NCBI GenBank assembly: GCA_964016885.1
Contig: OZ024754.1
Coordinates: 40,176,001 to 40,240,000 of the forward strand
Reading direction: 5' to 3'
DNA from: Eledone cirrhosa
Lineage: Eukaryota
DNA length: 64,000 nt
The position numbers and the translations under genes are program-made. The notes beneath the pieces were generated by a model. That model ran no database searches. It saw only the letters and a list, made by a program, of their open reading frames with translations, and was not told the DNA's origin. Positions within the stretch are counted from its first letter, which is position 1. Every line of letters begins with the position of its first letter. Below, piece by piece: positions 4,072 to 50,840 of this stretch.

Positions 4072-4261
4072 AATTGTTTCTACGTTTGGCACAAGGCCAG
4101 CAATTACTCAGTGCATTACTGGTACTTTATTTTATCGACCCCGTAAGGATGAAAGCCAAAGTTAACCTTGGCGGGATTTGAACTCAGAATGGCAAGGGCC
4201 GTAACTCTAAGCGTCAAAGCATGGCGTCCGACCCTCTACCGACACTGCCAATCCGCCGCCC
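4072..4261 (-). mobile_element. tRNA-derived SINE (family A)
   Basis: On minus strand: A-box-like TGGCAGTRTCGG, B-box GAGTTCAAATCC, central YTTTCATCC..GTCGATAAAATAAAGTACC, tail GAAACAATT; about 20 copies in window. Confidence 0.85.
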
Positions 4262-4319
4262 TGTAACTATTATAATGATTAGGAATGAGGATTCAGTGTT
4301 GCATCAAACCATATTTAAT

Positions 4320-4413
4320 AACATATTACATATGTTTCACTATCAATCAGCTCAAGGCAAGATCTATTATAGATCAAACCTGACTCTGTAATCGAAAGTT
4401 CCTCAGATATGTT
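4320..4413 (-). ncRNA. Type I hammerhead ribozyme with 61-nt stem II insertion
   Basis: AACATAT-CTGAGGA-[61 nt]-GAAA-CATATG-TA-ATATGTT: perfect 7-bp stem I, palindromic stem III, GUA cleavage triplet. Confidence 0.75.
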
Positions 4414-4702
4414 TGGTATATGAGCTTGTCTCCGATATATATATATAAGCGGACGTAAAATGATGATGGTGATGATGATGATACATATATAAAGAGTAAA
4501 AAGTTGATGTCCTGACTCTTTGTAATATAACCATACTCTACTACCCCAAGTATCGAGTACTCCGTTAAGTCTAACCAGTTTCAAACCTGAATCTATCCTG
4601 ATTTATATATATATATATACCACCACCCCACTCTCAAGAGCGTGAAACTAATAAACCTTTGTTCGTACTGCCTCTCTGTTTTGTTACCGTTCAATTTTTT
4701 AC

Positions 4703-4712
4703 TATATATATA

Positions 4713-4765
<53 letters not shown>

Positions 4766-4834
4766 ATATTATATATATATATATTATATATATATATATT
4801 ATATATATATATATATTATATATATATATATATT

Positions 4835-4888
<54 letters not shown>

Positions 4889-4941
4889 ATATATTATATA
4901 TATATATATTATATATATATATATTATATATATATATATAT

Positions 4942-4972
<31 letters not shown>

Positions 4973-5029
4973 ATTATATATATATTATATATATGTATAT
5001 ATATATATATTATATATATATATATATAT

Positions 5030-5082
<53 letters not shown>

Positions 5083-5170
5083 ATTATATATATATATATA
5101 TTATATATATATATATATTATATTATATATATATATTATATATATATATATATTATATATATATATATAT

Positions 5171-5202
<32 letters not shown>

Positions 5203-5253
5203 ATATTATATATATATATATTAATATTATATATATATTATATATATATATAT

Positions 5254-5287
<34 letters not shown>

Positions 5288-5376
5288 ATATTATATATAT
5301 ATATATATTATATATATATATATATTATATATATATATATTATATATATATATATATTATATATATATATTATATA

Positions 5377-5447
<71 letters not shown>

Positions 5448-5485
5448 ATTATATATATATAATATATATATATATATAATATATA

Positions 5486-5558
<73 letters not shown>

Positions 5559-5560
5559 AT

Positions 5561-5591
<31 letters not shown>

Positions 5592-5609
5592 ATTATATAT
5601 ATATATTTT

Positions 5610-5640
<31 letters not shown>

Positions 5641-5642
5641 AT
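4703..5642. repeat. ~940-bp interrupted (AT)n microsatellite
   Basis: Direct inspection. Confidence 0.95.
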
Positions 5643-5976
5643 TAATTGGTGTTGGATGCTTAAAAGTGTCCGTATGTGGTAGGCCGTTTGAGCACTTGAT
5701 GCTCTCATAGAGCAGAGTATGATATCACAGAAAAAAAGAGAATCCATGTTGCCAGCAGTTCAAGCAAAAAACCCCTTACCTCCTACAGTAGCAATTCCGA
5801 TCTAAGAAACAAATTTGATGGAGAATGAAAAGAACCAAATAGTGGACATCCATGAGTGGCTAGAAATATCGATGATGTGTACAATTCTTGACCACTCATG
5901 GAATGACAACAACAGGATCTAAGCCGACAGGCGAAGTATATCGATGTAAAAAGACATTAGGAAAATCTGCTTCAAA

Positions 5977-6072
5977 GACGTATCTGAAGACCTTGCGATT
6001 TTCAGAGTCAGGTTTGATCACCACATCGATCGTGCCTCGAGCTGGTCGCCAGAGAAATCATTGTAATATGTC
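5977..6072 (+). ncRNA. Type I hammerhead ribozyme with 63-nt stem II insertion (homolog of 4320-4413)
   Basis: GACGTAT-CTGAAGA-[63 nt]-GAAA-TCATTG-TA-ATATGTC; compensatory changes relative to the 4320 copy; base of stem II mismatched. Confidence 0.68.
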
Positions 6073-6229
6073 CAATAAATTCCATTCGTCGCAACACTGA
6101 TTCCCTTTTTTTATGTGATATCATCATCATCATCATCATCAATGTTTAACGTCCGTGTTCCACGCTTGCATGGGTTTGGACGGGGGTTTTCCCACTTGAG
6201 GCAAGAGTGATTGTCTTGCTCGCATAGGA

Positions 6230-6413: not shown

Positions 6414-7457
6414 TATAAGCAAGTCTAAACATAGACCTGTGAAGACTTTGGCAATGGCCCAGTGAAAGTTTTATGAAAGTTTTATCTTTCACCTCGTCTC
6501 ATTATTTTAGACTTTCAAACACACCAGACAAGAAGTATATTTAACTTCTCTTAAAACTTCTTATACAACATCAAAAGAGATATTTACTTTTGTAACTACT
6601 TCAATCTGTTGCTATATGTTACTGCGTGAAAAATACAGCTGCTGTCAGAAGAGGACTGGGTCTTAAAACAGGTGGAGTGCTCACCTTGACGTAATAATTA
6701 TTTCTAACAGACTGAGATGGTATGGACATGTGATGTACATGGAGGATGACTGCTGGTTGAAGAAGTGTCAAGTAAACCCACGCACCATCATATCTGAAAC
6801 GGAGTAACTATTATACGCACAAACATTATAGATATCCCGGTCCCCAAAGAAATTATTTAATAGGTTGACAAATACCTGTCTCTTCTAAAATGGAAGCCTT
6901 TGCAAGAAAAAAAAAAAACTGGTCAATTGATCAGCTAGAAGCAGCAGACAAATTTCCCTCAAATCACATCCTATCCTCTTAAAAAATGACAATGTAGTTA
7001 TCAATTTCTAGCAGAACGTTCAACCAAATAGAGGTCTCCCCTCTTTTGCTTGTGAACTTAAAATTTGTTAATGTTCGTAGTACCAAACAATTGTTTATAA
7101 TTATTTCTCATTTGGCTAAAATAAGCAAGAAAAAGGATTATTCAGGCCTTTAACTTGTGATAGCATCGTAGGGACCCCATCATAACATATTGAGACATTT
7201 AAATCTGGCCATCAATCTCTTGGTCAGAACAAAACCGATGTCTTCCAGAGGCTGACAGAGAGAGAGAGAGAGAGAGAACGTGGGATATAGAAAGAAATGA
7301 ACCCCAGTACTAGACTGGTACTTTACTTATTGACCTCAAAAGGATGAAAGGCAAAGTTGACCGCAACAGGATTTGAACTCTGAGCACAGAAAAGCCAAAA
7401 GGAAGAGTCCAAAACATTCTGTCCGACATTCCACTTAATATAAATAACATTTATACA

Positions 7458-19491: not shown

Positions 19492-19872
19492 TTTATAAAT
19501 AGGGAGACACAAAGGAAGCTTTGTTTAGAAACAGCTAGTAAATGTGAAAATTAGGTAGTAGCATGTGCTTACGCTGTATTTGACTAAATAGAATTAGTCT
19601 GTTAGTTGGGATTTAAAAAAACCCTCTGAATAGAGAAAAAGGATGAGTAATGACGTACATGGCACACGAACCCACATCTTTGGTTTGCCGGACCAATGTG
19701 TTACCATTTCACCAACACGCCACTCATGCTTCCTTCTCTTAATGAGAGATAAATCAGCCACTGGATACACATTAATAAATGTGATTAGTAAAATATTCAG
19801 GGTAAGCAGTAGGTATTAATAAAGTGATTTGTCAACAAAATTCCCTCTGACAATGAGACAAGAGGTAAAAAA
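19492..19872 (-). repeat. Dispersed ~380-bp repeat with internal tRNA-like module (copy 1)
   Basis: High similarity to 42090-42472; partial copy at 60380-60460. Confidence 0.8.
19651..19721 (-). pseudogene. tRNA-like cloverleaf (anticodon GGC), probably not a functional tRNA
   Basis: GGCGTGT/GTACGTC acceptor stem, D-loop GG, TTGGT-CCGGCAA-ACCAA anticodon arm, degenerate T-loop TTCGTGT, T5 tract about 10 nt downstream. Confidence 0.55.
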
Positions 19873-33094: not shown

Positions 33095-33154
33095 TTTCAT
33101 TCTGAGGATTGAAAGCAAAATCTTTTGCTTTTAAGAAACCACTGGTAAATGGAA
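33095..33154 (+). ncRNA. Complete type I hammerhead ribozyme
   Basis: TTTCATT-CTGAGGA-TTGAAAGCAAAA-TC-TTTTGCTTTTAA-GAAA-CCACTGG-TA-AATGGAA; GUA triplet, predicted cut after 33147. Confidence 0.78.
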
Positions 33155-42089: not shown

Positions 42090-42472
42090 ATATAAATAGG
42101 GAGACACAAAGCAAGCTTTGTTTAGAAATAGTTATCAAATTTGAAAATTAGGTAGTAACATGTGCTTATGCTGTATTTGACTAAATAGAATTAGTCTGTT
42201 AGTTGGGATTTTAAAAAACCCTCTGAATGGAGAAAAAGGATGAGTAATGACGTACATGGAACACAAACCCACATCTTTGGTTTGCCGGACCAATGTGTTA
42301 CCATTTCACCAACACACTACTCATGCTTCCTTTTGATAAAGATGAGAGATAAATCAGCCACTGGATACACATCGATAAATGTGATTAGTAAAATATTCAG
42401 GGTAAGCAGTAGGTATTAATAAAGTAATTTGTCAACAAAATTCCCTCTGACAATGAGACAATAGGTAAAAAA
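42090..42472 (-). repeat. Dispersed ~380-bp repeat with tRNA-like module (copy 2; cloverleaf 42248-42318)
   Basis: Similar to 19492-19872. Confidence 0.8.
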
Positions 42473-49861: not shown

Positions 49862-49923
49862 TTTTATTATATATATTTCGAAGGTACTGTGCTGTTTTTT
49901 CAGTATGTCCTCGTCAGATAAAA
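49862..49923 (-). ncRNA. Type I hammerhead ribozyme (mirror copy)
   Basis: Reverse complement of 50021-50083 with small stem II differences. Confidence 0.7.
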
Positions 49924-50020
49924 TACATGAAATGATGTAGGACATACCTCAACGGTCTTGATCGTTCAATTCCAGTATTGGCAGTACTGGAATTGAACCA
50001 TCAAGACATCACTTCATGTA

Positions 50021-50083
50021 TTTTATCTGACGAGGACGTACTGAAAAAAACAGCACAGTACCTTCGAAATATATATAATAAAA
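50021..50083 (+). ncRNA. Type I hammerhead ribozyme
   Basis: TTTTAT-CTGACGA-GGACGTACTG..CAGTACCTTC-GAAA-TATATA-TA-ATAAAA; AUA triplet, palindromic stem III. Confidence 0.72.
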
Positions 50084-50226
50084 CATATATTTTGATTATG
50101 TGAATGTCTTCATTTATTAATATTCAGAATAATATTAATAACTCCAGAAAACTTCACTGTAGAGTGCTTTTAATCTATTGTAAAACTATATTCATTGAGT
50201 AATCAATGAACCATAATAATCTTTGG

Positions 50227-50288
<62 letters not shown>

Positions 50289-50518
50289 ACCTTTTTTATG
50301 TATAGTTTGTGCCTTCAGTCGGTTATCTTGGTGTCACATTTTTTTTTTAAATCGAATTATACATGTACTGCAGCTAAAGTTCGATTTACAAATATATCAA
50401 ACTTTAATTAGAGAAAATTCAACCAAAATTCTTGAAGTAGTGTTTATCAGTTTACTATTGTTTCGAAAAATGAGATAACAAACCCAATCAATAAATGTAG
50501 ATACTATCAATATTTCAA

Positions 50519-50603
50519 AAGGAGTTGGTCATAATTTGCTCTTAATAACAAGTATATCTATTAGATATACTTGTTATTAAGAGCAAATTATGACCAACTC
50601 CTT
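50519..50603. repeat. Perfect 42-bp-arm palindrome sitting as stem II of a hammerhead-like core on -
   Basis: Arms 50519-50560 and 50562-50603; flanked on - by CTGAAGA and GAAA. Confidence 0.85.
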
Positions 50604-50840
50604 GTCTTCAGATAAATTTCAAAAATATGTCAGAGACGATTTCAACAAGTGTGAAGATATGTATACCAGTAATTTTACCAAAAAGAAACAATATTGGGAA
50701 ACAACGAGGAAGGTCTCGACATATTTTCTGGTCACAAATACATCTGCAGCCATATATATATTGGGTGGTCAAGTATGGATTTTGTAGAAATTTGTAGAAA
50801 TTTGTTTATTTCTACAAATTTCATACTTGACGGCCCTATA

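Follow-up and report, generated by a model that had tools for sequence, protein, structure and literature searches.

A conserved predicted hairpin in place of loop 2 in hammerhead motifs of Hydra-clade Penelope-like elements

The window, a stretch of 64,000 nt, lies in a TA-rich animal genome of 3.0 Gb. Two type I hammerhead motifs, copy A on the minus strand and copy B on the plus strand, are found on either side of a long (TA)n tract, each within a fragment of a pseudo-LTR. The features of this part of the window are as follows.

4268 to 4436, minus strand: 5'-truncated pseudo-LTR fragment of subfamily A, 169 bp, matching another A copy at 89%
4314 to 4319, minus strand: AUUAAA, a hexamer like a poly(A) signal, 8 nt past the predicted cut site (from the sequence; putative function)
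4320 to 4413, minus strand: type I hammerhead, copy A (from the sequence and covariance model R1)
4348 to 4390, minus strand: stem II extension of copy A, 43 nt (from folding and subfamily comparison), consisting in order of a bulge, CAG/CUG, the AG/G loop, UC/GA, AGG/CCU and an apical GAUC hairpin
4700 to 5645, no strand: (TA)n tract between copies A and B (from the sequence)
5657 to 5752, minus strand: inverted 3' end of subfamily B with its ~56-nt "tail", in head-to-head orientation to copy B, matching the end of element L084 at 93%
5751 to 6124, plus strand: pseudo-LTR fragment of subfamily B, 374 bp, from a Hydra-clade Penelope-like element, matching the 3' end of L084 at 88%
5977 to 6072, plus strand: type I hammerhead, copy B (from the sequence and model R1)
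6000 to 6044, plus strand: stem II extension of copy B, 45 nt (from folding and subfamily comparison)
6074 to 6079, plus strand: AAUAAA, a hexamer like a poly(A) signal, 9 nt past the predicted cut site (from the sequence; putative function)

The first-pass annotation of this DNA had reported two hammerheads of shared architecture, and its coordinates and letters are right; it recognized the hammerheads and missed their setting in pseudo-LTR fragments of Hydra-clade Penelope-like elements, the palindromic stem III of the dimer type and the hexamer past the cut site. Copy A has the stem I AACAUAU/AUAUGUU, the core CUGAGGA at 4406-4400 and a stem II of 61 nt (4399-4339) followed by GAAA-C-AUAU-G-UA, with the predicted cut after GUA falling between 4327 and 4326. 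The corresponding parts of copy B are the stem I GACGUAU/AUAUGUC, the core CUGAAGA at 5984-5990 and a stem II of 63 nt (5991-6053), the predicted cut lying between 6065 and 6066. Both copies thus hold a hammerhead core with a 7-bp stem I, a 2-bp stem III and a GUA site, and CUGANGA, GAAA, A15.1-U16.1 and an NUH cut site are present in each. The palindromic stem III ACAUAUGU is intact in copy A and damaged in copy B (UCAUUG versus CGAUUG in the family), and the position of the G10.1-C11.1 pair is A-U in copy A and C.A in copy B. The two copies align at 76% over 128 nt (E 1e-15) from stem I onwards; upstream of stem I their adjoining sequences do not align.

Folded alone, each window copy is weak (z -1.64 for A and -0.65 for B), and model R1, which was built from relatives, scores copy A at 100 bits. 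Relative to the family majorities, 13 of 147 sites are changed in copy A, whereas copy B has 6 changed sites and a 7-nt gap. CpG-to-TpG decay accounts for ATTGA in copy A (ATCGA in the family), for TTT in both copies (from TTC) and for the T of YGAG in copy A (from CGAG), so that three of the stem II differences of copy A are decay. On this sequence evidence, copies A and B are decaying pseudo-LTR fragments from two subfamilies of a large repeat group. These results also bear on three earlier claims. The extension of ~60 nt is real as a domain of 61 and 63 nt, which is the whole of stem II, and the part beyond the basal 8-9 pairs measures 43-45 nt. The extension was said to covary between A and B; it is near-identical in the two, and the pairs cited as covarying belong to stem I and basal stem II. 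The change from TCGAT/ATTGA to GCGAT/GTCGC does reflect basal covariation at the level of the family, with the ATTGA of copy A being CpG decay.

Other structured motifs occur elsewhere in the window. An inverted pair of type I hammerheads lies beside (TA)n at 50019-50085 (plus strand) and ~49866-49930 (minus strand), with a stem II of 31-32 nt that is devoid of the AG/G loop and a weak match to model R1 (30.5 bits). At 50497-50619 (minus strand), a hammerhead core surrounds an 88-nt stem II holding a perfect 41-bp hairpin (z -14), which may be a fold-back from an insertion or a very long-armed family. At 33102-33147 (plus strand) lies a motif resembling a hammerhead, its stem II being 26 nt long with ~12 bp and its stem III region reading CCACUGG. 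Near-identical tRNA-like matches at 19651-19721 and 42248-42318 (both minus strand; 44.9 and 35.8 bits) are possibly the heads of a tRNA-derived SINE.

The hammerhead motif is abundant in this genome. A pattern built from the core, stem III and the first part of stem I, separated by a spacer of 50-75 nt and leaving the sequence of the extension unnamed, gives 4,363 genome matches versus 5 for a reversed control, so the motif is not a product of chance; 99 among the 100 of these matches that were listed look homologous by eye. The core combined with the left arm gives 1,747 exact matches versus none for the control. When the spacer is shortened to 12-42 nt, the pattern yields 129 matches versus 11 for the control; among the 100 of the 129 matches listed, most are single deletions and a few recur between GATC repeats (five type F rows), and the latter may represent a small shortened subfamily. 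Two pattern scans of metagenome contigs returned no matches. Three contig runs from one sample showed neither joints nor ends, a result that has no bearing on expression. A DNA search of the genome produced 2,428 first-look candidates for A and 3,767 for B, 40 of each being scored. Many copies of subfamily B are accompanied by a match to query positions 4-93 on the opposite strand, which are inverted truncated copies, and a TA or TC microsatellite lies at most 95 nt from the 3' side in 41 of 56 B copies and 26 of 37 A copies.

Long copies of subfamily B hold an ORF for a reverse transcriptase (RT) with a C-terminal endonuclease, and at locus L081 direct pseudo-LTRs (1899-2282 and 6774-7155) flank this ORF together with a tail. 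The ORF starts ~110 nt past the pseudo-LTR and was read as a single frame, piecewise across stops and frameshifts, in L081 and L082. Its protein carries RWR, DKT, YRDD, CxCX5C (CNCRVGEEC), a GIY-YIG-like motif, CKLC and CRH, the CCHH motif being absent as judged by eye; the Pfam GIY-YIG model matches it with E 0.0012 and 19.5 bits, below the cut-off of 22.6. Features listed for the Hydra clade are a single RT and GIY-YIG ORF with RWK, DKT, a CxCX5C linker, CxxC and CxH and without CCHH, as well as a preference for (TA)n targets, and the same source gives pseudo-LTRs, inverted truncated copies and a tail as the usual anatomy of Penelope-like insertions (PMC8557442). The copies in the window are therefore almost certainly fragments of Hydra-clade Penelope-like elements, as judged from motifs and anatomy, the RT having been compared with the published alignment by eye. 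In subfamily L, the motif is likewise found downstream of RT and endonuclease sequence on the same strand (L253, L249). The parent Hydra-clade ORF is thus identified for subfamilies B and L and is likely for A; no parent ORF of A was seen in the flanks and loci examined, and A and B have tail sequence in common. Further remnants of Hydra-type ORFs, 35-50% identical to that of family B, occur at L248 (3422-4992, minus strand), L251 (5071-6636, plus strand), L252 (6571-8646, minus strand) and L086, and point to a diverse Hydra clade in this genome. One B copy (L054:263-760) joins the endonuclease end to sequence that lies ~550 nt further on in other copies, this junction being an internal deletion or a lost intron.

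We compared stem II across the repeat group, starting from 20 seed subfamilies and keeping for tests on majority sequences the 13 with at least 5 copies (the counts per subfamily may include a copy fetched twice). Seeds I, G, M, N, O, P and Q, with fewer than 5 copies, were left out of these tests, and I, M, N, O and Q are nonetheless represented among the 18 real copies used for RNAalifold and for pairing counts. In all 13 subfamilies stem II is 57-63 nt long, the lengths differing by 1-nt indels, and follows a single plan: nine basal positions of which the fourth is a mismatch or wobble, a bulge of 1-3 nt (placed by hand where missing, in subfamily F), three pairs, the AG/G loop, UC/GA, usually a bulged pyrimidine, three further pairs and a variable apical hairpin. 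Loop 2 is therefore replaced by a predicted hairpin of 43-45 nt whose near-invariant G-AG-UC/GA-G-C loop is ~12 pair steps from the core. The G-C, U-A and C-G pairs around the AG/G loop are present in 13 of 13 majorities. Among the neighboring pairs, C-G has become U-A in K and L, A-U has become G-C once in L and once in E and F, and A-U has become U-A in L; in E and F the extension opens with a broken pair (A.G). Moreover, the apical helices of L and H have been replaced and are still paired, and the loop region is 80% identical among the nine main subfamilies as compared to ~50% for basal stem II.

Pairing of the extension across the 13 subfamilies was equalled in 3 of 5000 permutations. Own-family pairing exceeds cross-family pairing in stem I (0.86 versus 0.67) and in basal stem II (0.93 versus 0.73), to an extent reached by 0 of 5000 permutations. 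Unprompted, RNAalifold recovers the same stem I and stem II helices from the 18 real copies, mispairing two core bases in place of stem III. When the full structure is named for these copies, 92.7% of 466 cells are paired and 17 of 26 pairs show a double change; for the extension alone the figures are 94.4% of 214 cells and 6 of 12 pairs, versus 1.6 in shuffled data (0 of 500), with the caveat that the shuffle controls ignore relatedness and that a single L copy contributes two of the three double changes in the apical part. A tree built without the extension places E and F as sisters (100/99) and K and L as sisters (90/95, below the starred level), which reduces the compensatory changes beside the loop to about four independent events, three of them involving subfamily L. 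The extension hairpin has z-scores of -1.1 to -3.4 in all 13 subfamilies, and in 10 of 13 the fold of the sense strand is better than that of the complementary strand. Once the sequence further downstream is added, however, the predicted probability of the extension pairs falls to 0.5 or below in seven of eight subfamilies, which counts against a simple stable fold.

Taken together, these data indicate that the extension is very probably an RNA hairpin under selection with a sequence-specific surface. The first-pass annotation had proposed an extra structured domain kept by selection, and this proposal is borne out by 13 subfamilies that fold alike, with the four or so independent compensatory changes lying in the proximal part; the additional copies show both the covariation and the conservation of the internal loop that the two window copies had led it to expect.

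Within the hammerhead itself, the 8-bp self-duplex of stem III is full in 11 of 13 subfamilies, reaches 6 of 8 pairs in L and is unclear in H. The G10.1-C11.1 pair is G-C in only 4 of 13 majorities. Deviating majority cores occur in J (CCGACGA), in K, where one base is inserted, and in J2 (AAAA). Subfamilies with an altered core have been amplified, with 34 copies examined for J (for example L160:1507-1652, minus strand) and 6 for K (L134:1692-1839, minus strand), and J and K may, on this sequence evidence, be subfamilies that spread with their catalysis weakened and the extension retained.

Downstream of the predicted cut site, A(A/U)UAAA is found in 13 of 13 subfamilies (AAUAAA in 9 and AUUAAA in 4), starting 7-14 nt after the cut, and after it come a stretch that contains CA and a tract rich in U; similar hexamers are visible in two rows of a published alignment. 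Because the hexamer is downstream, a cut at the predicted site would part the RNA from its likely poly(A) signal. The tail bears ACUCUG, the reverse complement of CAGAGU in the extension, in seven of the eight subfamilies for which a tail majority is available. As both sides are nearly invariant, there is no covariation by which a CAGAGU-ACUCUG pairing could be judged. In the tails of A, A3, B, C, H, J and L (e.g., L055:1022-1077), ACUCUG stands at the start and is accompanied by a CAUCGAGUGCU block; E has ACUCUG only. These tail sequences, ACUCUG and CAUCGAGUGCU, are candidate recognition sequences for the endonuclease.

What the extension might do can be considered in light of work on related elements. 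Hammerheads of Penelope-like elements are reported to cleave as dimers (PMC4209133, PMC6765202). In the element of the green anole, insertion was unaffected by catalytic mutations and used mainly uncleaved RNA as its substrate, and reverse transcription begins at internal positions, which set both the end and the tail (PMC11167929). Insertion of the anole element with a dead ribozyme implies that the fold can matter without the chemistry. We tentatively favor the idea, with confidence just short of even, that the predicted 43-45-nt hairpin in the place of loop 2 of these predicted hammerheads is a binding site for the RT-endonuclease of the element. In this mechanism, selection would act on the RNA of active master elements and not on the copies in the window; two ribozymes would pair through the palindromic stem III and then cut after GUA; the protein would read the loop and so pick the RNA; and the same protein would start reverse transcription at two ends, ~50-60 and ~110 nt downstream. 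The position of the extension, ~12 pair steps from the core and past the usual loop-loop contact, together with the anole data, favors protein binding over its rivals, and the retention of loop sequence beyond what pairing needs fits a recognized surface. Other hammerheads of this genome have arms of 20-36 nt without the AG/G loop, and one of these is downstream of the Hydra-type ORF at L248 on the same strand, indicating that the loop is not needed by Hydra elements generally.

The near-fixed distance of the loop from the core, set by nine basal positions in all 13 subfamilies, could also be explained if the AG/G loop were a tertiary-contact module that docks on an outward extension of stem I, replaces the usual contact between loops 1 and 2 and raises the cleavage rate at low magnesium. 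Contacts between stems I and II are known to speed natural hammerheads (PMC3088659), stem I of several subfamilies can continue beyond an internal loop, and the outer stem I pairs better within a family than across families (p 0.005 and 0.015). Unrelated control segments, however, gave similar p-values in the same kind of test, and the outer pairing is weak in three subfamilies (-1.8 kcal/mol in B, -1.4 in C and -0.3 in K). Furthermore, A(A/U)UAAA is displaced by ~6 nt in subfamily L with the loop unmoved, so that the hexamer is not a partner of fixed geometry. We regard docking of this kind, and the replacement of the loop-loop contact that goes with it, as unlikely, albeit deserving of attention. 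A further alternative is that stem II contains an aptamer-like domain through which the protein of the element, or an alternative pairing over the poly(A) site, sets cutting, polyadenylation or template use. Such allosteric control seems rather improbable; if true, a regulated ribozyme module would be common to thousands of retroelement ends in an animal genome.

Invariance also admits an explanation at the level of DNA, in which the conserved letters are an internal promoter or endonuclease site, or are plainly inherited, and the hairpin is incidental. Most pairs of the extension never vary and hence say nothing on pairing, the pseudo-LTR of Penelope contains an internal promoter (PMC2377424), and the match between the tail and the complement of CAGAGU fits a DNA signal. 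Against this, compensatory changes are seen on both sides of the loop, the replaced apical helices of L and H still pair, the hairpin z-scores are negative throughout, and the sequence just 5' of stem I is unalignable between A and B, so plain inheritance does not account for the 80% identity of the loop. We consider an incidental hairpin improbable. A final possibility, which we rank last and think about as improbable, is a switch in which the 5' strand of the extension pairs ~17-27 nt past the poly(A) signal and hides the poly(A) site of the upstream pseudo-LTR, thereby allowing transcription to read through into the ORF. The invariable hexamer with its CA-bearing and U-rich sequence is consistent with such a switch, as is the ORF start ~110 nt past the pseudo-LTR, since the upstream signal would need to be bypassed if the promoter precedes it. 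An alternative 7-9-bp duplex of -9 to -12 kcal/mol is predicted in 9 of 13 subfamilies, but it is weak in L and absent in A (the subfamily of one window copy), J and J2; its own-family advantage (p 0.046) is no better than that of control segments (p 0.006-0.47), and the change between AAUAAA and AUUAAA may be a single event.

Several other candidates were rejected. A coding stem II like that of the anole element is contradicted by single-base length differences and by the ORF starting downstream, and a 3' splice site (TTTCAG in A and B) by the purines that E and F have there. AGUC/YGAG resembles loop A of the hairpin ribozyme, for which G+1, G8, C25 and A38 are described as invariant, with G or A at position 11 and a loop B (PMC8216279); the equivalent of G+1 is A in K, position 11 is C, no loop B is seen, and there is no Rfam match. 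The loop does not fit the kink-turn consensus by eye. A pseudoknot or switch with the downstream CUGAYU stretch does not rise above controls and is kept as a weak rival.

Searches against known RNA families gave no Rfam match at the gathering score in the window and none at E values up to 10 in 4200-6200, and we found no paper on this extension in the literature that we searched, which did not take in Dfam or Repbase. The earlier suggestion of a possibly undescribed variant is hence upheld as regards Rfam, and the motif also falls outside the published descriptor, in which stem II has 3-7 bp, loop 2 has 3-10 nt and the arm is at most 24 nt (PMC4209133), as compared to 57-63 nt in all 13 subfamilies here, an arm about three times as long as those described. 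This limit on the length of stem II explains how thousands of ribozyme-like motifs in one genome were missed by standard searches. In its account of the minimal hammerheads of metazoan Penelope-like elements the same source calls G10.1-C11.1 highly conserved, unlike the situation described above; since this pair is variable in published Hydra motifs too, the deviation lowers the expected rate and does not affect membership. Its anatomy makes the motif a Hydra-clade type I hammerhead, with predicted activity. It shares with the Hydra-clade hammerheads presented in PMC8557442 the type I form, a location near the 3' end, a short palindromic stem III, a variable first pair of stem II and (TA)n targets, and by eye subfamily E and Hydra-1_oBim have similar basal stems II, with seven of eight left-arm letters in common. 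The Hydra motifs listed there, however, have a stem II of 3-7 bp and loops of 3-10 nt, whereas here a 43-45-nt hairpin contains a conserved internal loop. Among the Penelope-type hammerheads in that source, PLE-X1_sMoe and PLE-X1_sTam of spike mosses are marked as deviating, with loop 2 inserts of ~29-35 nt; they differ in clade and host, and their entries report no conserved internal loop or covariation.

The Poseidon element PAc of the green anole likewise carries a hammerhead in its pseudo-LTR and has two internal RT starts that define end and tail, but its ORF starts inside stem II (PMC11167929), whereas here the ORF begins beyond the pseudo-LTR and stem II is far longer. The hammerhead in the mammalian Clec2 3' UTR also has its cut site upstream of a polyadenylation signal; that ribozyme is discontinuous and located in a host gene (PMC6765202), unlike the retroelement end described here. 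Hammerheads of Penelope-like elements cut slowly in vitro, and the anole element remains able to insert when its catalysis is mutated (PMC4209133, PMC11167929). For separating cutting from protein recognition the loop offers a direct handle, being conserved, located outside the catalytic core and available in 13 natural variants. The hammerhead type and the element clade are thus known; to these the present analysis adds the conserved loop and the covariation seen between subfamilies, along with the adjoining hexamer.
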